A stretch of DNA of 64,000 nt from a virus (lineage: Duplodnaviria; Caudoviricetes): the IMG/VR virus record IMGVR_UViG_3300028048_000079, positions 60,869 to 124,868 of that record, one strand, 5' to 3'. This document shows positions 14,041 to 56,985 of the stretch, piece after piece (position 1 is the stretch's first letter; every line of letters begins with the position of its first letter). Made by a program: the position numbers and the translations under genes. The notes beneath the pieces were generated by a model. It was given only the letters and a program-made list of their open reading frames with translations. It did not search any database and had not been told where the DNA came from.

Positions 14041-14271
14041 AATTTTAATTGAATTTAAATTGTTAATAACTGATGTTCTTTTTAATAACGCTGCAAAGGT
14101 ACAAAGAAATTCTGATATATGCAAATATTCTGTGCTAAAGAACGTTAAGCGGCCAATGTTTTTCCAGTTTCTTTACATTTCAGATTATCCATTACCTCTT
14201 TTGCGTGGTCATTCATTGACTTGTCACCGAAAGCAAATTTGGCTTTGCCATTTACAAAATATATCATACCT

Positions 14272-20306: not shown

Positions 20307-20381
20307 GCTCCCATAGTCGAGTGGATAAGACGAGAACCTCCTAAGTTCTAAGCACCGGTCCGATTCCGGTTGGGAGTACCA
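20307..20381 (+). tRNA. tRNA-Arg (anticodon CCT)
   Basis: Acceptor GCTCCCA/TGGGAGT, anticodon arm AGAAC-CTCCTAA-GTTCT, T-arm ACCGG-TCCGATT-CCGGT, encoded CCA. Confidence 0.9.
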
Positions 20382-20454: not shown

Positions 20455-20781
20455 ATGACACAGATTGTAACAAAAGTAGGCACGTTTGACGTGATGGACA
20501 AGAACGGAAACGTATTAGTGTGTAAGAACGGAAAGGCATTGGCCACATTCACCGGTATCAATGCTTGGGATAAGGACGCTATCATCATGGCCATTGAAAG
20601 TCATGGAGAGGAACTTAATAAGGCCGCAGCAAAAGTCGGTACCGGAAACATTACATCTGAGAATGTCATTCCAACACTGAACTATATCTGTGACATGTTG
20701 AGCGACACCATCGAGGACAACAAGACAAAAGGCTTCGTAACAAGTAGGCTGAAACAAGTTATTAACAAGTTGGCAGCATAA
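20455..20781 (+). CDS. Hypothetical early protein (C-terminal LAA)
   Basis: 108-aa ORF with higher-GC codons. Confidence 0.75.
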   Translation: MTQIVTKVGTFDVMDKNGNVLVCKNGKALATFTGINAWDKDAIIMAIESHGEELNKAAAKVGTGNITSENVIPTLNYICDMLSDTIEDNKTKGFVTSRLKQVINKLAA

Positions 20782-20801
20782 ATAAAATGAATTAGAAAAT
20801 T

Positions 20802-20927
20802 ATCACGGAATAGCGGGGTTGACCGGAACCCAAGTAATACCCAGTACCCAACCGCTGCGCAGTTTAAGAAGGGGGTCTAAACAAAAACTGGTGAGGGCTT
20901 AACCGGCAACCGCTAATTCCCCGTGAT
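20802..20927 (+). ncRNA. Candidate ~125-nt rod-like structured RNA
   Basis: Closing stems ATCACGG/CCGTGAT, TAGC/GCTA, GGTTG/CAACC, CCGG/CCGG. Confidence 0.5.
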
Positions 20928-21149
20928 TAACAAATATCAATTAATATGAATTACGTAGTGAACTTTTTCACCCAAAGAGAGTATGAGCATATTCCTGAAA
21001 TGCTGAAAGCCGGTAGTAAGGAACTCGCAACAGACCCTAAATCCTTTGGTGAGCGAAAGCGCAAATGCTAAACAAATTTTAACACAAAGGTTTACACTTT
21101 TTAACAGAAAATATTTGCATATCTCGAAAAAAGTTTGTACCTTTGCATT

Positions 21150-21960
21150 GTCAAAATAAAACAAATGGCTATGACACCCGCAAGAAAGAATTAGCGGAGT
21201 TGTAAAACCAACAATGGATGATGGGAGGTTATGGGGAATATTCCACCTTAGTACCAATCCGAAATAGTTCAAATAATATGGACACAAGACCTCCGCCCAA
21301 TTGAAGGGTATGTAAGATTTAAATTGTTTAATATTCATATAAGAGCGTAGAACTATGATAAGAGTAAGAGACAAGCCTTGATAAATAAGGTTAGTATAAT
21401 ATAAAATCATATTTAAGATTAGGCTGATTGCTGACGCTAATCACCGCAGCCCGTTATATAAGTGAAACGGCCCCGCACAGATACCGCAGCATAGGCCAAA
21501 GTGAGAACAAGCCACACCGCCTTTGCGAATTGAAGTCAGTGGACTATGTGAAATTCGCCCGCATCAATATCCGGTTCTCTATTATATCTCTTTCGGAAAG
21601 TGGCTCAACCTTCAACGCAAGATTGCCTTAGTCCGGCATATAGTGCCGTTTGAGCGAATGGCAGGGACGTGAAGGATAAACTCAGTCGGAATAATTTGCA
21701 ATAGTTCTGACAATGGCTCACTTAAGAGAGTTTGCATTAGCGTAGTGATTACGATGATGATTTAGGAGGTGAGTTTTGAACATGAAAATGGAAACTGCTG
21801 TATCACAAGGGTAAAGGTTTACGATTGCTTGTTGGAGGAGGTTGTGAACAGCACTTGCAAGAGTTTTCAAAGTAGTGTTTGGTGAGTTGTCCTTTATAGG
21901 TTAGCGACCTATGGTATATGGAGGATGGAGGACGCAGAAACTTAGATTGGATAACTCACA
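21150..21960 (+). ncRNA. Candidate large ornate ncRNA (ROOL/GOLLD-like size and context); structured core about 21420-21960
   Basis: Promoter at 21138; no credible sense ORF over 800 nt; many local and long-range stems; 11-bp terminal stem 5 nt before tRNA-Ile. Confidence 0.6.
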
Positions 21961-21964
21961 TTTT

Positions 21965-22041
21965 GCTCTGGTAACTCAGTTGGTTAGAGTGCTCGGCTTA
22001 TACCCAAGTGGTCGGGGGTTCAAGTCCCTCCCAGAGTACCA
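21965..22041 (+). tRNA. tRNA-Ile (anticodon TAT)
   Basis: Acceptor GCTCTGG/CCAGAGT, D-arm ACTC/GAGT, anticodon arm CTCGG-CTTATAC-CCAAG (one C-A mismatch), T-arm GGGGG-TTCAAGT-CCCTC, CCA. Confidence 0.88.
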
Positions 22042-22116: not shown

Positions 22117-22683
22117 ATGCAGAATCCAAATAGTTACTTAAAACAAAAAGAGCGTAGTTTATTACGAAAACTTGAATTAATAAAAGAAAAAGGTGGTAAA
22201 TGTAATCTTTGTGGCTATGATAAAAATATTGCGGCATTAGAATTTCATCATATAGACCCATCAAAAAAATTATTTCAATTAGACTCAAGACATATATCCA
22301 ATACTACGACTGAGAAATTAATAGAAGAAGCAAATAAATGTATTTTGGTTTGTGCCAACTGCCATCGAGAATTACATAACAAGCAATTTGAAAAAACTGA
22401 ACTACAAAACACACTTGATAATATAACATCACGGCATATTAGTTTAAAGGAAAATAAGAAAAAAATTGGAACTTGTAAATATTGTGGTAAAGAGTTTCCA
22501 TACGTAAAAGGAAAAATATATTGTTCTGCTGAATGTCGTGAACTTGATAAACATTACCCTTCTTATGAGGAAATAATCTCGGATTATCAAAAACTTAAAA
22601 GTTGGGAAAAAGTAGCACAGAAATATAACATATCAAGAAAAGTGATACAAAGAATTAGAAAATTTAAACAATCTCAAGCGTGA
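22117..22683 (+). CDS. HNH endonuclease with extra Zn-finger/HTH C-terminus
   Basis: CNLCGY...LEFHHIDP...KCILVCANCHRELH, then CKYCGKEF...YCSAEC. Confidence 0.85.
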   Translation: MQNPNSYLKQKERSLLRKLELIKEKGGKCNLCGYDKNIAALEFHHIDPSKKLFQLDSRHISNTTTEKLIEEANKCILVCANCHRELHNKQFEKTELQNTLDNITSRHISLKENKKKIGTCKYCGKEFPYVKGKIYCSAECRELDKHYPSYEEIISDYQKLKSWEKVAQKYNISRKVIQRIRKFKQSQA

Positions 22684-23074: not shown

Positions 23075-26027
23075 ATGAATAACAAAACGTATGTAATCTA
23101 TTCAGAGGATTTGAAGGGATTTCTTTCAAACGATGGCTTAAGCCTTACAGAAAACATGGATGATGCAATGCACTATCCAAGCGTAGGACAAGCAATGATG
23201 GCTTCGTATAAGACATCTGAACAATTGAATGGAATATTCAAGTTCCATGAGATTTCAATCCCTGAATGCCAGAGATAAAAATAAATTCAAAATAAAGAAA
23301 AAATATCAACCGGTCTAGGACTGGAACCTATAGTATCTTATCGTATAAGAAAATTATATTTTTAATTAATATAATTTTCATTTTCATTTCTTCCTAAGAA
23401 GAAAGAAAATATATAAAAGAAAGAAGAAAGGTTTCCTTTCATGGTCTGTAGTCCTTTGTTAAAATTATAAAAAATTCACATAGTTTTAACGAAGATTAAG
23501 ACTCAACAATTTGGATAATTCAGAATTATTTTGTACCTTTGCACTTGAATTTAGGCAACAACAAAGAATAATGGCGAAAATATTTCACGTAAACAAGTAT
23601 AAATATAATGACGAAATAAGTATTGAAGAACGTCATTATGAATGGTATAACACAACTGAACGTGTTATCAATGGTGGGTTATGCTATCCTAAGTATAGGA
23701 GAACTTATACTGAAATAGTTGGTGTATTATCAAAAACTAATACAGTAGTTACACACAAACATTCTACTTATATCGATTTACTTGATGAATTAAAAGAATT
23801 AGGATATAAAATCAAATAATTTATAATTACTTTAAACAATATCAGTTATGGAACAAGTAATCGCTTATAAGGCTTTTAATGGACGTTTATTCGATACAGA
23901 GGAAAAATGTATCGCCTATGAAAAGAAGTTGTCTCAATACCCAAAGGTAAAAGAAACAACCATAAAGGCTGATGATAGTTATATCACCAATAAGGTAGGA
24001 CATGGTGTATATGTTTCAACTGATATTGTAAAACACGTTATTGAAACATGGGAAAAACCATATTCACAGAAAAAGACAAAAGTTTTCTATATCGTTGGAG
24101 GTAAATATAAATTCATTGACATACATGATAAACATGGTGCAAGCCTTATGCGCGGAAGTACCTATCTGTTTAATAATGAAGATACATCAACAGAATGGTA
24201 CTTAGGTGCAAAGCATTTCGCTGAACAAATATTAAAAGGACATGAATTGACAGATGATTTCGTTTTATCTGAAATCAATCAAATGAATGAAATAAACTGC
24301 ATACATAGCAAATTTAGCGAACTTACTGCTGAAGTAATAGAGCCAAATAAGAAATGGAAAATAGATAACCCAAAATGGACTTCCGGAGCAGTAGCACCAC
24401 ATACATTCACAATAGAAAAAATCAATTAAAAAAAAAAATAGAAAACTCAAAATCAGATTGTAGTTTTATCAGGAACTTTCACTTACAATTTGTAATTTTT
24501 GCAGGAGACACAAGTTTCAAAGTGTAATTTTTGCAGGAGGATTTTTTAACAATCTGTTAATGTTTATTAACATAAAATATTTGCATATTTCAAACTTTTT
24601 TTGTACCTTTGCATTATCAAAATTGATAGGTAAGGGTAAAGCCTTAAAGTATAGTCTCCAACACAGCTTGTACGGAATTGTTAATTTTATATAAATTTCA
24701 CATAGATTTAACAATGATTTAACTCAAAAAATTTGGTACTTTCAAAAATTTTCACTATCTTTGCAGTATAAATTTAATTAATATAAAATATGTATAGTTT
24801 TAAAATTAATGTAATAGGAGGACAAAAATATGATTTTTACAGCAATTATCACATCAGCAAGTGTCGTAAGACCGGCTAAGTCCTATGACACTATTAAAAA
24901 ACAAATGGAACGTATCTATAAACTCTATGCTCAAGGATATGGTACAAGAGAAATGCTTGAAGATTGTGAACAGAAAGTATACGTAATCTTCACTAAAATC
25001 CCTTATTAATGTCTTTTAACAGATAATTCACATTCTTTATGACAAATAATTTGGATATTCCAAATATTATATGTAACTTTGCACTTACAAAACAGAAAGT
25101 CAAACAATTTAAATTAATATTATTATGGTAGAGAATTTCAATTCAATCGTAGAGATTATGAAAAGACGTATTGCACATGATTTGCATAACAACACAAATG
25201 GTGTGCTTGATATGGTGCTTAATGCCTATAACCGCTATCAGGAAGACGAGAGAGACGGAGTAGACTATATCTTCGACCTCAATAATCAGAATGACCTCAA
25301 ATGTATGGTTGATGGTGGGTTAACCGTGACCGAAATCGTTTCGGCTTGGAATAAGGTTCAGAATGAAGGAATTACATCATATTTCCATTTCGGATGCAAC
25401 TATGACGGATTAGAAGCATTAGGAACAACTACAGACGTGAAACATGACCTTATCTCATGGCTTCCGATATTTATTCCATACGTCCTTATGTACGTAACAC
25501 GATGCACAGAGTATCAAGCAATCTATGAACACTATATCACAGAGTATCTTGAAAATAACGAAGACTTCTAATGACTATCGGTAATGTTATTGTAGCATTG
25601 GTATTCGCCTTGATAGGTGTTCTGTGGCTTATCCTTGAAAAGAAAACCAAAGGGAAAACAATTAAATAATATCTATATGACAATAAGTAAAAAGAAAATT
25701 CAATTAATATCAGATAGTGATATAGGCACATATCTACGTGTCTCAAAAACAAGGGCAAGGGAGATATTTGAGGAAGGTAATGGCAGACTATATGTAATGA
25801 CATCTGACAGAAATCCGGTTAATTCAGCAACAACCGCACATGAATATAAAAAAGGCTGTAAACCTTATTGTTATTATTATGATAGTGAAAGAGAATCTAT
25901 CAACACCTTTGATGAACTATTGGACGATTTTGCCTATTGGCTCGATACAGACGGATATGGACATATTCCGGACAGATATAGGTCAATGCACGAAATGTTC
26001 TCATATTGGGTGAAAATTCAAAACTAA
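23075..26027 (+). CDS. Hypothetical early genes (23075-23278, 23571-23819, 23848-24429, 25125-25571, 25677-26027)
   Basis: Starts refined to ATGs downstream of promoters at 22937, 23534 and 25074. Confidence 0.7.
24604..24664 (+). repeat. Promoter + conserved ~30-nt motif, copy 4
   Basis: TACCTTTG at 24604; GGGTAAAGCCTTAAAGTATAGTCTCCAACAC at 24634-24664. Confidence 0.8.
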
Positions 26028-29396: not shown

Positions 29397-30621
29397 ATGG
29401 AAAAGATTTATGTTGTGGTTTATGTATGTGTAATGACCTTTTGTGGTGACATTTACACGGAGCAGAAAGTAACACGTAACAAGTATGTAGCCCAGAAATA
29501 TTTCAACAATTACATCGCTGACATTGCCGAGACAACCGGTGATAACATGATAGTTGAGGAAATGGGTAAAACCATATTTGACTATGAGGGTGCAAATGGC
29601 GGTAATATGTATCACGTTGAAATTTCAGAAGTATATGTAGCATAATAAGTAAAAAAAAAATAGATTAATATGGAAGAACAATTGACATGTTTTGAGGTTG
29701 AGACAAAATACAAGAGTGGCCGTATCAGAGTTGAGACAATCATTTCAAAGAACGAGGAAAGTTTCTGGAAGTATTACGACAGGCATCATAATGTCAAACT
29801 GATTGCGGATTCTGTAATTGTGGATGCTTGGCCGGCATAATAATTAAAATTCAATTAATATGGAAAAGACTTATGTGATTGACGATAAGAAACGATGTGT
29901 CTATCCTATATGGGGTTGGGCACAATGTTGGAAAAGTCATTTAAAGGTAGCGGAAGGTCGTAAATACCGACTTAGGACACTTTGGGGTTTTTCTGTTGAT
30001 ACCGAAAATAAGGTTATTGAGGTTAGTGATGGTCAGCGTAGGGTATTCGATTCAGTATATGCCGGACAAAACGGAAATCCTAATGATATGAAAGATTATT
30101 TGGTTTTTTGTGATGCGTTGAAATATCTTAAACAAAAGGGTTATAAAACAAATTTTTAAATATTAATTAGTTAGAAGTAAAAGTATTGATTAATATCTTT
30201 TAACGTTTCCTTAACGTTTATTATGGTAAAATATTTGGTAAATTGGAAAAAATGTTGTACCTTTGCAGTACGAAATAAATAAACAACATTATTAATTTAA
30301 TTAAAAGGAGATTTAGCTATGAAATTTGTTTTAGGAATTAAACCAAATGTACTTAGTGGATATGGAACACTTAAAGAAGCTCGTAACCGCATTGAGGGTG
30401 TTTTGTGTTTTAGTTCTTCTTTCGGAGTTGGCTACCAAAACTCAATGATAAACACAACCGCAATATATGGCTATAATATTGAGGTTTTCAAGCGAGGTAA
30501 ACACCACAAGAACAAGCATTACGTTATCTACAGATATACATTCCCTATTGAAATGTTCAAATTGCTTAATGTAGAGATTAAACAAGGTAGTCGTACATTT
30601 AAAATAATACCCAAAAAATAG
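29397..30621 (+). CDS. Small hypothetical genes (29397-29645, 29670-29840, 29860-30159, 30319-30621)
   Basis: ORFs behind promoters at 29366 and 30258. Confidence 0.65.
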
Positions 30622-42831: not shown

Positions 42832-45800
42832 ATGAATACAATTGCTTTCAACAAGTTCATCGTAGTGGGTTGGCTTTATACCATACCTTATATGTTGCAA
42901 GGTCGTGACGTAATGAATTGGTATTTTTACAACAACTATCTGAAGGTGTATAAAAACCTCAAATCAGCCACAAATGCGGCTAATAAGGCCATTTCAAAGT
43001 ACAAGTTCCATAGTGTCAAGGTCTATCGTATTTATGACGCTGATGAAATGATTGGCGGTGATGCAATCAAGATGTGGGAACGGGAGCAGCCGGAGAGAAT
43101 TATGTATGTTAAGGAGTTATTTCAGAAATAGTTAGTTATGGATAATGCAAGTAAGTATATAGTGCTTTATAATGGTGTACCATATCCGGTTAATTCCATT
43201 GAGGAGGCTGCAAATAATCTGTTTGGTCTTAGGGTTGAGATAAGTGAGAATGGCCGAGATTGGGATATTATTGTAAATGGCGAGAGCAGAGCACATTATA
43301 TCCGTGCCGGAATTGATGACAACATAGGTATCAGTTCAAGGGATAATGGCTATACTAAGGAGGAGGCATTAAGAGATTACATGAGGAATTTTGTAGGAAA
43401 GAACACATATTACAATTTGCATTGGTATCAGTTAATGGATAATAGTGAGTAAAAATTAATTCATATTAAATATGCTAAGTAAGAAGCAGATAGAGGAAAT
43501 TGGTGACGAGGTGATTTCAATAATCCGGAGGTCATATAATAAAACTTATGCAGACATTTATCCTATTGTCAATGGTTATGTGGATAATGCTGATGATGCG
43601 AAAGCCGTATTAGATTACATTAAGAAAGACACTACGGAAGATGCTTACTGGCAGTTGAATGATGTTGATTATGATTAATTAACATTTCATTAACAAAGAA
43701 TTAACACTTTTTCTTTGGTTTTTCCAAAAATTCTTTGTAACTTTGCACTATCAAAATTAAATAATATAAGTAGATATGGATAAGATTAGAATCAGACAGA
43801 ATTATGAGAATTATGAGAGGGTACAGAATGCCTTTAAGGATTTCATTCATGCCCTTGTGTGGGAATCTATTGATATCGATGCCGGAGTTCATGAGGATGA
43901 AGTAAATGAGCATATTGACCGATATTGTAGAAACAATGGAGGTCAAATGATTTCGCTTACTAATGATAGCGTAATGAAGTTCATCAAGTCGCTTGAAAGC
44001 CGTTATGAGGTACACTGCTATGAGATTTGCGTAGAAGGTAAAGCCATTATAGAAACGGAATATCATACTGATAATGAAGTGATTGCACTGAAAAAAGGTG
44101 CGGAGTTCTATCGTAGAGCGAAATGCCCACAAGTCAAAATTTTTGACAATGAGCAGGATAAGTACATTGCTGAATGGGATTAAAAATTAGATAATATGTG
44201 GTTAATCAAGAATCATAAAACCGGAAAGTATTACAAGACAAAGTATAATATTGACAATGATAAGTTATTTCACTTACATAGTTTACCATTTGTTAAGTCC
44301 GGTGTATTAACTGAAGAAGAAAGTCGTTCTTCAATGCTTTGTACTGACAAATGGCCACAGATTGAACTGGTAGGTAGGTTTGATGGCAGACGTAATACAT
44401 GGATGCGTGATTGTGAGTGGTTCACATGGCTTGTGGTAATTGATGAAAACAATTAAGTAATTAAAATTTAATTAATATGGAAAAAGGTGTATTTAAAGTT
44501 TTAACGGATGCAGTTTCTGGGGTAAAAGAAGTTGGTATTTACCCAACAATGAATGATGCAGTTGCAGATTTCAAAGAGTGCGTTGCATGTTACATTAGTT
44601 TTGTAGAATTTGGCTCTTATAAAAAACCTGAATTGATTTTACGTAGAAGGCTTGTTGCCTGCGGAGCACCTACTTACGGGACAAAGTCTACCTTTGACAT
44701 AAATCCTAAGTATGCAGAAAAATATGCTGATGAATTGGTAACGGCTACTGGAAGTACGGAGTTAAGTGAGTATGTAGTTAATTACAACAATCGTTATTTT
44801 TAAAAAAAAACTTAATTAATATGAGAAGGAATAATACATCTCTTTTCAGTAAGATATGGAAGTTTGGCAAACGTGGTTGTACTGCCCGTGAGAAGTATCT
44901 GGATTTACCCGATGGTATCAGAATTCCAAATGAGGAGGATTGTGTCTGTGCTCAAATTTGTGCATTTAAGGACACCAATGAAGTGATGGTATATATTCTG
45001 CATTATCCGGATGATGAAGTAGATAATTGGGGCGAGTTTGTCTATTTGCATGAGTTGCCGATGAAGTGCATGAAAACCATTATGGATTTTATTGATAGGC
45101 TTGGTGGTTTGGAAGCACTGACGGAATTGAAACGTAAGATGGAAGGAGATTAGTAAATTTTAACATTCCTTTAACATTTATTATGCGAGATTATTTGGCA
45201 GTCTCGCATATTTTTTGTACCTTTGCATCGTAATTAAAGAATATAAGTTATTAACAATTAAAAATTCATTTGAAATATGGCACAGAATAAGAAGCGTCCC
45301 CAGTACATCAAAGACATTGTGGAGAGTGTAAATTTTGATTTGCGTTACCACAAGGTCAAGGATGAAGGTAATGAGTTATTCAGATGGGTGTGTGAATACC
45401 TGTTGAAACGTGGCTATTATCGTGGATTCAATTATTTCAAGGATTATGACAACAAGTATTTGGGCAAGGTAGTTCCTACAGAGGCCGGAAGTTATGACCC
45501 AGAGAAGTTTGATTATTTACAAGTTTATTAAAAAAGTCAATTCATTTTATATGGAAAAGGTATACGCAGAAGTACATTACTATGACTGCAAAGGCCGTCA
45601 ATATCGTCTAAATTATCTTGCTGATGATTTAAGAATTATGGGTATTGACGTACAAGGTACCGGTTTTAATGACGATTATGATGGATATGTAGAAGTTCTT
45701 GTTACGTTAGAGCAAGCCATTGAACTTGACAAGAAATATAAATCTAAATTTAATATGATTGGTCGTGGCAATACTATTGAGGAAATTTTTGATGATGCGT

Positions 45801-48118
45801 TAAGGATTGACCGGATGGTTAATAGAATATGTAACTAAAAATAGATTAATATGGACGATATTTGTAAGTATAAATTAGAATTGAAGTCTGACGCTGGTAT
45901 TTACATTCGTTGTCGGATTGGTGGTCTTGGACACATAAAATTCGATAAAGATGGTAAAACTGATTGGGATTTCAATGGTGCTTGTTGTCTTATTAAAAAC
46001 GCTGACTATAAGGGGTATTGTAATCTTTGCGTGGTATATCATTCGAAGGGTTGTGAGCAGTTTGAAAATGGCTATACTATTCAGTTTGCTCCAGTATACA
46101 ATGAGGTTGGCCAAATGATATTGGTAGAGTATGACAAAGATGAAAGTTATGCTTGCGTTAATAGTGGTGGATTTAAGGATTATGAGACCGGAGAAATAAG
46201 GGATGCAGAACTTACTTTCCATAAGTATGGTACATTTACAGAGTTTAACAATCTCTTAACAAAAAATTAACACTTAAAATTTGCATATTTCAGAAAATTG
46301 TTGTACCTTTGCACTATCAAATTAAAACATTATAGATTATGGAACAGAAGGAGTATATTGAGAAGTACATGGCATTAGAGCAACAAATGGCTGACCTTAG
46401 AAAGTCATACGTTGAGAGTAATAGCCCGTGGCCGGTAGGTACTAAGGTTGTGGTACATCACAGACACTATGGTGGTAACTTTCCAACCGGATATGATGAA
46501 TATGGTATCATAAAGGGTTATGAGATTAACAATGCCACCGATGAAGTACGTCCTATTTTGGCTAAGATTAAGAAAGATGGTACTGCCCATCCTACGGCCA
46601 GAGTGTATGTGCGTTGTAATGTTGATGTGGAATTATGTAACGATTAAATATCAATTAATATGGAGTTTGCAAGTTATATTGTAATTGGTTTTAACTATAA
46701 CGGAAAACGTTATAACCATAAGGTTGAGAAGTCTGAAATTGATAAGGAGACCTATGAAGATACATGGGTATATTACTTTGAGGAAGATGGCTTAAGTTTT
46801 GAAGTATGGGGAGGTCTTGATGAAGATGGAGAGCCTGCTACTGGCGGTGGTGATACTAATCAATGTATTCCCTTTGCCGTAAATGTCTACGAAATTGATG
46901 TTGAGGATGGTGAGGGTACACAATTGGAACAGATTGATGAAGTGGACGTTGAGGAATGTGTCTAAAAATAAATTTAAATGATTACAAAAGAAAAAATTAG
47001 ACAAAGTTTCGATGCAGTCTGTTATCATTATTGCGGAACACGATGGCAGGATATAGGTTTATTGGATAAGGCTCTAAGAGCGTTTATTTATCTGTTCGCT
47101 GAATATCCTACCATATCCGTAAAAGGTGAACGTATAGGCTCTGAAAACGCATCAGGGGCATATTGTAATGTGGCTAATAGCCATGAATATTCTCTAATAT
47201 ATATTGAGAAGAAAGATGGCGGTATAGTCGACCTTAATGTTGAATGGCACCAGTTAGGTGGGGCAAAAATGAAATTTGATGGTGAAATTATGATGGCTGC
47301 TATTGAAAATTATGGTAGTTGGAAACTTGAAATTTCAGACAAATTGATTGAACTATTGAACGATTTGCTATCTCTTTAACAATCTTTAAAACATATTTCA
47401 CGTTCCTTAACTGAAAATATTTGGTCGTGTGAAATATTCTTTGTACCTTTGCATTATCAAATTAAAAACAAGAAATATGGTTAAGATTGAAATGTATAAG
47501 GATGATAATGGCAGATTGCTTGTTATCAGTCAGCGTATTAATCACAACTTGGTTTGTGAGTTGTTCAATGATGGTGTAGAAAAACGTGGACATAACGGAA
47601 AATATGATATGAGAAAGGAGTTCAGTAATGATGCTTCTATTCCTCAAATTCTCAATCATTTTGATTTTCCAATTGACACGAAGGCATATTGGAAACGTTG
47701 GGTTTAAAAATATAATATTATGGTAACATCAGCATTTATAAAGAAGTGGAGTGGAGCAGATATGCAGGACGATGGTGCATACGTCTCTAAGGAGTTTAAT
47801 ACGTTTCAGAACGCTTTTAAGCGTGAAATAAGCCGTATATGTAAGAATATAGGCGCAAGCCTTGTAAGTTACTCCAAAGGACATTACGATATGTCAGGGT
47901 TTATTGAGAGAAACGGACACTATGTCTATTTTTCCTATGACAATTCATGTAATGCCGGTGGCCGTGCTTATGCTAATCTTCGTTGTCGTGGACCGTTCTT
48001 CTGCCGGACGGCTGCAAATGAAAAAGATTATCGTGGTGGGTATAATAATACAATTCCATTCACGGAGGCAGAGGAAACATTTAATCGTCTGCTAAACGCT
48101 ATGCACTTGGCTGTATAA
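42832..48118 (+). CDS. Array of small hypothetical early genes (starts 42832, 43138, 43472, 43776, 44196, 44477, 44821, 45277, 45551, 45851, 46339, 46660, 46978, 47477, 47720)
   Basis: Tightly packed co-oriented ORFs in 2-4 gene cassettes behind promoters at 42798, 43738, 45218, 46304, 47444. Confidence 0.7.
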
Positions 48119-48209
48119 GTGTTAAAATAATGTTAAAGTCACGAATTTCTTTGGTTATTTCAGAAAATTGTTGTACCTTTGCACTATCAAAATTAAACGA
48201 TTAAGCATT

Positions 48210-48629
48210 ATGAATACGCAGTTAGAAAAGAGAATTAAGGAGTTGCGAAATGAGTTATCATTTACCAATAAGATGTATTGCAATCTTAAAGAGCAGCTTG
48301 ATAGTATGGTACAGCATAAGGAGAGCCTTGAGAAGAAAATCAAGGAACTAACTGATAATGCCACCAAGGAGTTTATTGACGAGTTTAAACAGAAGCATTC
48401 TGCTGATACCATTCTGTTATTCCGTTGTGGTGATTTCTATGAATGTTATGGTGAGGATGCAGTAGAGATTTCAGTAACTTTGGGCATTACCCTTAATATG
48501 GATAAGACTGACAAGGGAATTCGTTCTTGTGTTACCGGTTTCCCACACCACGCTCTTGATACATATCTTCCAAAGTTGATACGTGCCGGAAAGCGTGTTG
48601 CAATTGCCGATGAAATAAAAGTGTATTAA
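48210..48629 (+). CDS. Coiled coil + stand-alone MutS domain I (mismatch-binding)
   Basis: [17 protein letters not shown]...LGITL...[26 protein letters not shown]. Confidence 0.85.
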
Positions 48630-48650
48630 TCAATTAAAAATAAATAAGTT

Positions 48651-49680
48651 ATGGAGAAGTTTCAGCAGACAATGAATGATTGGTTTGAACTGACCAAGCA
48701 GTTGAAGGACGAATGCAAGGAGTATCTTATTCGTGTTCTGAAAGAGCATAAAGGAGAAATAGATTGGTCAGAAGAAGGTTTGGACGATTATGTCCAGATG
48801 AAGTATTATGACCTATATGGTGAACTTGCCGGATGGACTGATGTGTATGGTGTCAAGTTGAGTAAGAATAATACCATTACATTTATCGGTGAGGATGGAG
48901 ATAACACCTATGAGGAAATGCACGATGATGATTTGTTTGCTGTGTGCAGTTTTATTAACGAAAAGGTTTTACCGGTAATAGGATAAATTATGGAGAGACA
49001 ACCATCTTACGGAGAGTTGGCAATGCTTTCAGACATGTTTGAGAAGCAGTGCGAGGACAAGGGAATAGTCTGGACAGATTTGGAAGTTAAGGATGAAGCC
49101 TATTTGGATTTCTGTAGTCAGTGGATTCAAGGTGAGGATAATCCGGAAGTATTGCTTTGTAATTATGGCTATGAACTTAAAAAGGCAGCGTAGCGTATGG
49201 AAAAGATTATCAAGGTTGGAAGTTTAATTAAGTATCGTGGTGATTTCGGAACTGCCACACCTTCCGTAGTATCAGTTACTAATATTGAACGTTCAGAATA
49301 CAAAATGGATAAATATGGCAAACCGGTTAATGAAGTGCCATTTTCAGAACGTGAGTATTGCGTCTTTGATTTGGATAATGGCCACTGGTGTTATGGTGAG
49401 CAGATTGATGATGTAATTGCATAAAATTTTAATTGATATGGCAAGAAAAAACGATGAAATTAAAGTAACTAAGGTTGAGTTTCTGTATGTGAATCAGCCT
49501 AAACGGAGAAAAATTAAGGTAAAGTTAAATACCGGTTCTACCATCTACATTGAACGTTGCTATGAGAGTTGGCAACAATATGGTGGCACAACTGATGAAT
49601 TATATATCACTATGCCGATAGCGGAAGAATATAATTACTGGTTACATGGTGAAGATTTAGATGTTAATGATGAATATTAA
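48651..49680 (+). CDS. Hypothetical genes 48651-48986, 48990-49193, 49197-49424, ~49438-49680
   Basis: Coupled ORFs. Confidence 0.7.
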
Positions 49681-55563: not shown

Positions 55564-56985
55564 GTCAATTACTCCTCCCTAAAGTGAGGGGCTTGTCCAC
55601 TTCCATTAAGGGTGCAGACGATTGGGTTATTGACGAAACCCTGCCGTTTAAGAACCTAAGCCTTCCGTCGACTGGAAGAATATTCGAAAACGGGTGTTTG
55701 CCTTTCTTGGCTATGTTGACCGCTGCGTTCCAATCTGCATCCAATACCAAACTATCCTTGCAGTAGTAACGGCAACCAATACGTTTACCATTACGTTTGT
55801 CATTCCTACAATCTGTTTGGCTTGTGTAAACCGGAGAAACTGTTTTCACCTCTTTACCAAAAAGGTGTGCCTTGGTGGTCAGTCGTGTCTTGAACTCAGC
55901 AAACGGCACTTGCGCAATTGCGTTGTTGTGACGTTTACGTTTAAATCCATCTTTGGTCTTTGACGTGTTTTTCTTAATCTTACTTAAATCCTCCATTACA
56001 ATCACACCGGCATCGGTGGATTTAATCAATGCAAGAACCGCACGGTTCTGCATATCTCTTGACATATTACGTTCCCTACGTGATACTTTTTTCAAATGTC
56101 TCTTTGCGGATTTAGTGCCTTTCTTCTGCAAACAGCGTTTAAGGTAACGCAGTTTCCTACGATTACGAAGGTATTCCTTATCCACAAAAGCATTACCTTC
56201 AGATGTAACGAATAGACGTTTCATACCCAAGTCCACACCGATGGAGTTGTCATTACATACTACGGTATCCGGTACATTAAAAGGTACAGAAAGCCATAGG
56301 GTATTGTTACGTAGGAATAATAATGGGTCACATGGCTTATACATGGAAAACATTTGTTTTTCCTTGTCATAAGTGACAAATGGTATGGTGGTGCGTTTTC
56401 CCTTTATGCCTCCGCATAACGCAATGTTTCCCGCAGTAAGCCTTGAATACATGCGTTTATCGAGTGTGATTGACAAATTATGTTTTGTCGGCTTATCTCC
56501 GTTATGTTTGTTTTTGTGTTTGCTTCTTAGTGCGGACATTGCTTCTTTTTGGACACGTATTACGGATTGTGCCGGTAGATTAGGGAATTGTTCACGTACC
56601 ACGTTATAGCATTTATTATGTACTGACTTAATGGTAAGTGGTGTATTGTTATCTGCAAGCAGGCTGCTGCAAAGGCCGTATGCTTTTGCAGTGTCTGTAA
56701 GGAGTGAAACCCAGTAGTCATATGTGGTTTTATCCGGTTGCAGTTGTATGTTATACGTCAGTATCATTTTATTTATGTATTGTTCACGTCGTGAACGTAA
56801 TTTATATATAAATATGTTAATAATTATAAAAAATATCAATAATTAAGTATTTTTTGCAAAAAATATTTTGTTTTCTGTTGAAAACGTTTTATATTTGCAA
56901 ATGAAAAATAAATAAGTTTAATAATAAAAGGCTACTTTCAATTCCTCTCCACCCTGAAGGATGGAGTTTCCTTGAAAGATTTTCT
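55564..56985 (-). mobile_element. Non-autonomous IS200/IS605-family (IS1341-like) tnpB-only element, 1422 bp
   Basis: Left-end hairpin near 56937-56976 after target TTCAT; right end ...CAAGCCCCTCACTTTAGGGAGGAGTAATTGAC; no target duplication; no tnpA. Confidence 0.9.
55565..56767 (-). CDS. tnpB: RNA-guided endonuclease TnpB (400 aa)
   Basis: RuvC-I IGVDLG, RuvC-II VMEDL, RuvC-III DADWNAAVNI; degenerate Zn finger YTSQTDC; ATG at 56767. Confidence 0.92.
   Translation of the reverse strand: MILTYNIQLQPDKTTYDYWVSLLTDTAKAYGLCSSLLADNNTPLTIKSVHNKCYNVVREQFPNLPAQSVIRVQKEAMSALRSKHKNKHNGDKPTKHNLSITLDKRMYSRLTAGNIALCGGIKGKRTTIPFVTYDKEKQMFSMYKPCDPLLFLRNNTLWLSVPFNVPDTVVCNDNSIGVDLGMKRLFVTSEGNAFVDKEYLRNRRKLRYLKRCLQKKGTKSAKRHLKKVSRRERNMSRDMQNRAVLALIKSTDAGVIVMEDLSKIKKNTSKTKDGFKRKRHNNAIAQVPFAEFKTRLTTKAHLFGKEVKTVSPVYTSQTDCRNDKRNGKRIGCRYYCKDSLVLDADWNAAVNIAKKGKHPFSNILPVDGRLRFLNGRVSSITQSSAPLMEVDKPLTLGRSN

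Follow-up and report, generated by a model that had tools for sequence, protein, structure and literature searches.

Background

To our knowledge, very few bacterial or phage RNAs longer than 500 nt have complex conserved folds, namely rRNA, RNase P, group II introns, OLE, ROOL and GOLLD. Each of these either carries out sophisticated chemistry or builds RNA-only assemblies without precedent. Of them, ROOL and GOLLD are both abundant and self-assembling; ROOL, which forms an octameric RNA-only cage, is reportedly as abundant as 16S rRNA, and self-complementary loops serve the assembly of GOLLD. We know of no protein partner of ROOL and of no function for either RNA. Both are large, pseudoknotted and found in a phage and tRNA context, and ROOL comes from the rumen (PMC5737381; 10.1101/2024.12.08.627333). 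ROOL is about 580 nt in length (average 581), its 5' and 3' parts are intertwined, and its fold includes three pseudoknots and six multistem junctions (PMC5737381; 10.1101/2024.12.08.627333), and GOLLD is composed of structurally separate 5' and 3' domains but is still one RNA (10.1101/2024.12.08.627333).

Here we describe an uncatalogued family of large (about 0.8 kb), pseudoknotted non-coding RNAs in a clade of rumen phages. A sequence-only reading of one phage stretch had proposed a large, ornate non-coding RNA adjacent to a tRNA, and this main claim is borne out by about 19 homologs, covariation above controls, two pseudoknots and a non-coding pattern of substitutions. A description of this RNA was not found in the literature.

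Genomic setting and promoter

The DNA analysed here, referred to as the window, is a stretch of 64,000 nt corresponding to positions 60869-124868 of an IMG/VR virus record of 124,868 bp, which CheckV rates as 32% complete. The source is an uncultured bovine-rumen phage, of whose genome the 125-kb record represents only about one third, and near-identical sequence is present in bovine gut and rumen samples. The proteins of the window are mostly without a Pfam family. The phage uses the standard genetic code, as its frames gain no length when TAG is taken as Gln or TGA as Trp.

A dedicated promoter had been placed at 21138 by the sequence-only reading, and it is real as a motif. The Bacteroidota-type phage promoter lies at 21114-21145 (+), with the -33 element TTTG at 21114-21117 and the -7 box TACCTTTG at 21138-21145. 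The motif TTTG-N17-21-GTACCTTTGCA, whose copy before the RNA spans 21114-21147, has 16 copies in the window, where 0 were expected, and 15 of the 16 are on the + strand. Further sites, with a nearly identical consensus, are found at 14092-14125 (-), 23510-23543, 24580-24613, 30234-30267 and 45194-45227. This suggests one dominant class of phage promoter, probably read by a Bacteroidota-type sigma factor. Since the shape of the motif is that of the Bacteroidota -33/-7 promoter, we infer that the hosts are Bacteroidota. By the known geometry of Bacteroides promoters, transcription would start at about 21151-21158. The block 21094-21165 is kept in all relatives and is repeated elsewhere in their loci.

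Copies of the promoter are also interspersed (45194, 46280, 47420 and 48150) in a run of about 11 ORFs of 92-153 aa at 44477-48986 (+), several of which are spaced exactly 12 nt apart; the run possibly represents an array of small paralogous genes. A TnpB/Cas12f-like ORF is located on the - strand at 55565-56839, with a match to the Pfam Cas12f1-like TNB domain (E 3e-12) and a weaker match to OrfB_IS605, which is under the family cut-off.

Upstream of the RNA lies a gene encoding 108 aa (20455-20781), for which 33 relatives with 57-98% identity were found in metagenome protein sets. It is followed at 20946-21071 (+) by an ORF of 41 aa that is called in most relatives; since its mismatches by codon phase (59/49/142, p=3e-14) are biased to the third position, this ORF is a real conserved small gene. 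An element of about 125 nt, closed by a long helix with bulges (AUCACGG..AGCGG / CCGCU..CCGUGAU), is situated between the two at 20800-20925 (+). Near-invariant in eight relatives, it is wholly missing from the loci L013, L015 and L027, in which the 41-aa ORF comes directly after the upstream gene. Rfam gives no match to this element, which might represent either a small structured RNA of its own or a mobile insert. Most relatives carry, between the promoter and the RNA core, a conserved basic ORF of 36 aa (MSKN.LNK...KDKNG..RY.I...; for example L008:4742-4852, L009:4743-4853, L012:3002-3112 and L027:3438-3548), accompanied by the hairpin GUACUCGAAUGAGUAC. The ORF is missing at this locus in the window, L004 and L017-L020, and a search of the rest of the 125-kb record did not find it. 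Its product is a possible protein partner for the RNA.

Homologs and non-coding character of the RNA

The whole RNA gene, about 810 nt in length, spans 21152-21964 (+), with a conserved core at 21172-21960, and its product folds into at least three structured domains. Homologs were obtained from two sources: the contigs of the relatives of the upstream 108-aa gene, which gave syntenic loci, and an exact scan of JGI metagenomes with the 22-mer at 21228, which gave ten more. In total, about 19 distinct syntenic homologs with lengths from 755 to 900 nt were identified in rumen metagenomes. Full-length identity to the relatives is 70-81%, equal to that of the flanking coding gene, and the order of the domains is constant throughout. 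The family is narrow: its roughly 19 sequences belong to one phage clade and are partly mosaic copies of one another. A search of a phage collection showed only the tRNA in common, and scans of IMG/VR returned only the record itself, whether the query was one of three flanking proteins, a 33-mer, the invariant 22-mer or a degenerate motif. Two patterns gave 0 matches in the GTDB species genomes, where neither a prophage nor a host copy was seen; the family has been seen solely on phage contigs.

The proposal that the stretch has no credible sense ORF agrees with the substitution data. Mismatches to the relatives over 21172-21960 are spread evenly over the three codon phases (467/505/487, p=0.48), compared with 318/200/719 (p=1e-78) for the upstream gene at 20455-20781, and the majority of the indels are not multiples of three and would break a frame; the RNA stretch is therefore non-coding. 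It is free of called genes in all homologs. The longest sense ORF in the window is 67 aa with a TTG start, and the longest ORFs vary from homolog to homolog, none being conserved. An antisense ORF of 157 aa (20937-21410) has no Pfam match, is not called in the relatives and reads as hydrophobic filler. Alternative codes (TAG=Q, table 4) were also tried on the stretch and opened no frame.

Secondary structure of the 3' domain

The 3' domain (21676-21960, +) consists of P1 (21679-21683/21728-21732), P1a (21685-21691/21705-21711), pseudoknot 2 (GGCUCAC 21715-21721 / GUGAGUU 21769-21775), P2 with its GNGA(U) loop (21741-21744/21750-21753), the optional module P3-P6, the terminal helix P8 (21882-21892/21949-21959) and P9 (21896-21901/21907-21912). 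The optional module includes P4 (21790-21796/21862-21868), P5 (21797-21800/21849-21852) and P6 (21804-21808/21842-21846), and an invariant CUUGCAAG is located at 21854-21861. A hand-built structure model of this domain was evaluated on a MAFFT alignment of 17 homologs. The results showed that standard pairs occupy 93.9% of the pair cells, against 26-43% when the partners were slid by 1-3 columns, and that both partners differ in 24 of the 59 pairs, the slid controls giving 3-7; since the homologs are partly mosaic copies, such covariation counts are not independent events. For four of five measures the observed values were reached by 0 of 500 shuffles, and the fifth, further pair types, was not above the shuffles (289/500). 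A 124-column core that includes the divergent L006, L013 and L027 was 90.3% paired, against 27-46% in the slid controls. Pseudoknot 2 is present in about nine sequence versions, and the duplexes formed by its own arms have a mean energy of -9.1 kcal/mol, compared with -4.3 kcal/mol for arms combined across lineages. G-U wobbles account for about 7% of the pair cells of the domain by hand tally from the per-pair table; since these would be mismatches on the opposite strand, the fold is that of an RNA on the + strand.

Every homolog has the terminal helix and the core of P1, P1a, pseudoknot and P2. P3-P6 is missing from L013 and L027, and the window itself is without the inner hairpin of this module. 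A covariance model built from a 106-nt core module of the 3' domain found exactly one copy per locus and none elsewhere in the 125-kb record or in the flanks of the relatives. The loop of P1a always contains a GC-centred palindrome, which is UUGCAA in most homologs, lying at 21696-21701 in the window; L013 has AUGCGCAU instead, and L018 and L026 have GCGC centred on the same axis. These palindromes are only mildly improbable, as a random 13-mer has one of at least 6 nt with P=0.12 and one of at least 8 nt with P=0.02. The P1a loop palindrome and the invariant CUUGCAAG are candidate contact points and might be read as weak hints of self-association.

Secondary structure of the middle and 5' domains

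The middle domain (21411-21675, +) contains pseudoknot 1 (GAGAAC 21503-21508 / GUUCUC 21574-21579), whose 3' arm is located in the loop of hairpin H3 (CCG 21571 / CGG 21594). H3 is enclosed by M4 (AGCCAC 21510 / GUGGCU 21600), and the domain further comprises an inner hairpin (GCGAAUU 21525 / AAUUCGC 21552; GTGAAT/ATTCAC in relatives), M5 (CCUUC 21609 / GAAGG 21671) and variable hairpins at 21417-21470 and 21620-21665. Compensatory versions were found for most of these elements. Pseudoknot 1 reads GAAAAC/GUUUUC in L027 and L006; M4 is replaced by GUCACC/GGUGAC in L027, AGGAC/GUCCU in L006 and AGGGCAA/UUGCCCU in L013; H3 alternates between CCGG/UCGG and CCCG/UGGG (GC in 10 sequences, CG in 6); and M5 is CCCUC/GAGGG in L027. 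On the alignment, both pseudoknots of the RNA are supported by many compensatory variants.

The 5' domain (21172-21410, +) begins with the terminal hairpin S1 (CCGC 21178 / GCGG 21194), which is followed by the nested S2 (GGA 21216 / UCC 21258 and GG 21223 / CC 21254), a bulged hairpin (21233-21247), S3 (UUCA 21268 / UGGA 21279), an A/U-rich variable linker (about 21299-21365) and S4 (GCCUU 21375 / AAGGU 21387). There are fewer informative changes here than in the other domains, and the most invariant block of the whole RNA, 22 nt at 21228-21249, is identical in 17 homologs. In the relatives S1 is swapped for GUGCC/GGCAC, GUGGC/GCCAC or ACCGC/GUGGU; the first pair of S3 is UA in 8 sequences and GC in 9; and the divergent L027 has a GC-to-CG swap in S2b and another in the bulged hairpin. 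The first 175 nt or so are missing from L010 and L011. The 10-nt palindrome GGAAUAUUCC was considered as a dimerisation site and rejected: L027 retains the hairpin without the palindrome, and GGAAUAUUCC is thus better read as the bulged hairpin.

The local stems of the sequence-only reading, seven in number, are all present in the sequence where they had been placed and are upheld by the relatives, several with compensatory changes. They include P1 (AACTC/GAGTT), P1a (GTCGGAA/TTCTGAC), the terminal helix (GTGAGTTGTCC/GGATAACTCAC), ATAGGT/ACCTAT, CCTTC/GAAGG and GCGAATT/AATTCGC. Its three long-range complements did not survive. The strings exist, but only 74%, 70% and 54% of their cells pair across the homologs, compensation is zero, and at one position none of 16 sequences can pair; moreover, their 3' arms fall in the supported P2 and P5 or in a deletion junction specific to the window. 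From the collinear order of these complements, pseudoknots or intermolecular pairing had been deduced. Two pseudoknots are real, but they are other pairings, and the deduction from collinearity is rejected. Folding energy by itself was uninformative: 150-nt segments gave z-scores near 0 over 21150-21850, and only 21850-21999, around the terminal hairpin, reached -2.6.

The downstream tRNA and its neighbours

A tRNA-Ile with the anticodon UAU was detected by ARAGORN and Rfam at 21965-22041 (+), 5 nt past the last helix of the RNA. In 18 of the 19 homologs a tRNA with a UAU or CAU anticodon was detected 3-7 nt after the end of the RNA (for example L004:5706-5780, L010:5458-5532, L008:5723-5812 and L015:3902-3991). 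The tRNA differs between relatives, being UAU or CAU (Met or lysidine-Ile), and some are 90-nt forms with an insertion. For L013 no tool detects a tRNA, and the alignment alone reads one that is split by an anticodon-loop insertion of about 100 nt (after 5202), which may be an intron. The window contains another phage tRNA, a tRNA-Arg at 20307-20381.

Directly after the tRNA-Ile, and outside the RNA, is a gene resembling HNH homing endonucleases (22117-22683, +), with a weak Pfam HNH match (E 7e-4; 20.1 bits against a cut-off of 21.4). An HNH_3 gene is present at the same place in L008 and L015/16 only and missing in the other relatives; such patchy presence is as expected of a free-standing homing endonuclease.

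Expression and proposed maturation

Six RNA libraries from four studies, X1, X3 and X17-X20, contain all or part of the stretch, and one RNA run of 12 million letters contains 34% of its words. These libraries are suggestive of transcription, and the presence of the stretch in them could also come from contaminating DNA; the small word shares in runs X4-X20 are no firm guide to expression or habitat.

The reading that we favour, and regard as likely, is that of a conserved folded RNA that is made as one unit with the tRNA, released by RNase P and active in trans as a stable folded particle. The RNA and the tRNA-Ile(UAU) would be transcribed together from the promoter at 21114-21145; a scan of the + strand between the two found no terminator-like sequence. 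Host RNase P would then cut at the 5' end of the tRNA (21964/21965), which would set the 3' end of the RNA and leave it a 5-nt tail after the terminal helix P8. By analogy with ROOL and GOLLD, which it might resemble in function, the released RNA would act in trans during infection.

Alternative explanations

The strongest competitor, which we hold to be possible but a good deal less probable, is that the stretch is a string of separately folding modules, namely the 5' domain, the middle core with its pseudoknot, the 3' domain and the terminal hairpin. These would be transcribed along with the tRNA and then processed to several smaller stable RNAs, of a kind often found in phage tRNA operons. 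In the window, the element at 20800-20925, which is likewise small, conserved and structured, is located just upstream. Every supported helix is local to one domain. An all-against-all screen for covarying helices between domains supported none of them and gave only weak candidates, which clash with supported helices and are probably linkage artefacts of mosaic lineages. Furthermore, domains are deleted or exchanged independently, the 5' domain being absent from L010 and P3-P6 from L013 and L027. Since no inter-domain helix is supported and domains are lost independently, co-transcribed modules retain some probability beside one giant RNA. Against the modules, however, are the fixed domain order in all homologs and the core 3' module, which never occurs alone in the 125-kb record or in the flanks of the relatives. 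Motif and terminator-like scans found neither an internal promoter motif nor a terminator within the RNA stretch, and separate domains do not exclude a single molecule, as the two structurally separate domains of GOLLD belong to one RNA (10.1101/2024.12.08.627333).

Much less probable is a ROOL or GOLLD RNA that has diverged strongly. The RNA does share the phage-borne, tRNA-adjacent niche with both, a rumen origin with ROOL and its size with GOLLD, and its variable 5' part and more conserved 3' part may recall GOLLD (PMC5737381; 10.1101/2024.12.08.627333). Neither Rfam model matches, however. Rfam 15 was searched at the gathering score with the window and 12 loci, and at E<=10 with lax filters with the 1.9-kb region and 8 short relatives; both searches returned tRNAs only, and no match to ROOL, GOLLD, OLE, RNase P, tmRNA or intron models was obtained. 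Similarly, raiA and HEARO had no Rfam match in the window or in 20 relatives, and ARAGORN found no tmRNA. The sequence-only reading had offered a divergent ROOL or GOLLD member or a new class. Since covariance models, the only available test of membership, gave no match to ROOL or GOLLD, the new-class branch is supported, but the divergent-member branch is not, there being no Rfam match at E<=10. The RNA belongs to a new family of the ROOL/GOLLD kind and is a member of neither; the resemblance lies in niche and style.

Similarly improbable is a leader acting in cis on the maturation, stability or timing of the downstream tRNA-Ile instead of an RNA acting in trans. The single promoter and the fusion, across a gap of 3-7 nt, to a tRNA reading AUA/AUG-type codons would suit such a leader, but a length of about 800 nt, two pseudoknots and invariant blocks of 20 nt go far beyond the need of known tRNA leaders. 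The tRNA-Arg at 20307-20381 has no homologous leader, as the core covariance model found no second copy, and the RNA stays when the identity of the tRNA changes (UAU, CAU or 90-nt forms). Finally, it is scarcely credible that the stretch codes for protein, as a decayed gene or in an unusual code, or works at the level of DNA, as an origin of replication or a packaging site, for although the antisense 157-aa ORF overlaps the RNA and palindromes are present, codon periodicity is absent, indels shift the frame, alternative codes open none, the antisense ORF is without a family match and is not a called gene in relatives, and the compensatory changes with their G-U wobbles are strand-specific.

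Comparison with known large RNAs

The conserved, tRNA-linked RNA described here was compared with the known large RNAs. OLE, raiA, HEARO/omega RNA, RNase P RNA, tmRNA and group I/II introns are alike in size, conserved blocks and complex folds, but none matches by Rfam, and no IscB, TnpB or reverse-transcriptase gene adjoins the RNA.

The closest resemblance is to ROOL and GOLLD, whose association with phage contigs and an adjacent tRNA is found here as well. As with ROOL, the RNA has a rumen origin, a link to phages or prophages, tRNAs nearby and several pseudoknots, and beside the abundance of ROOL may be set the finding that a very small RNA library still contains a third of the stretch. 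It differs from ROOL in its greater length (about 800 nt, 755-900 nt) and in having two pseudoknots, each local to one domain. Moreover, the 5' and 3' parts of ROOL are intertwined, whereas the domains here look separable and are lost independently, with no 5'-3' helix. With GOLLD the RNA shares a length of at least about 800 nt, a place in phages or prophages beside or around tRNA genes, and a fold with many helices and contacts resembling pseudoknots. The better conserved 3' part and variable 5' part of GOLLD may have a counterpart here, as the 3' core and terminal helix occur in all homologs and the 5' domain is missing in L010, but the most invariant block sits in the 5' domain. The conserved motifs and the helix layout differ from those of GOLLD, and no covariance model matches. 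Self-complementary loops of the kind used by GOLLD for assembly are only suspected here. GOLLD is known from Lactobacillales, marine and Mycobacterium contexts, and the present RNA is from a Bacteroidota-type rumen phage.

We regard as speculative, and as rather unlikely at present, the further proposal that this is a third independent family of phage giant RNAs that is released from a tRNA precursor, self-assembles through the P1a loop and CUUGCAAG into a multimeric RNA-only particle and serves jumbo phages of Bacteroidota during infection. If this were true, a phage tRNA-linked 'RNA cage' strategy would have arisen repeatedly and would be characteristic of large phages in general. One more unrelated family in the ROOL/GOLLD niche, phage-borne, promoter-driven and tRNA-fused, points to convergent pressure, and among the families compared here it would be the first in phages of Bacteroidota-type hosts. 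With about 19 natural variants, natural deletions of whole domains and clear pseudoknots, it also provides a new, compact test system for the function of such RNAs and for the question of whether the self-assembly known from ROOL and GOLLD is general.
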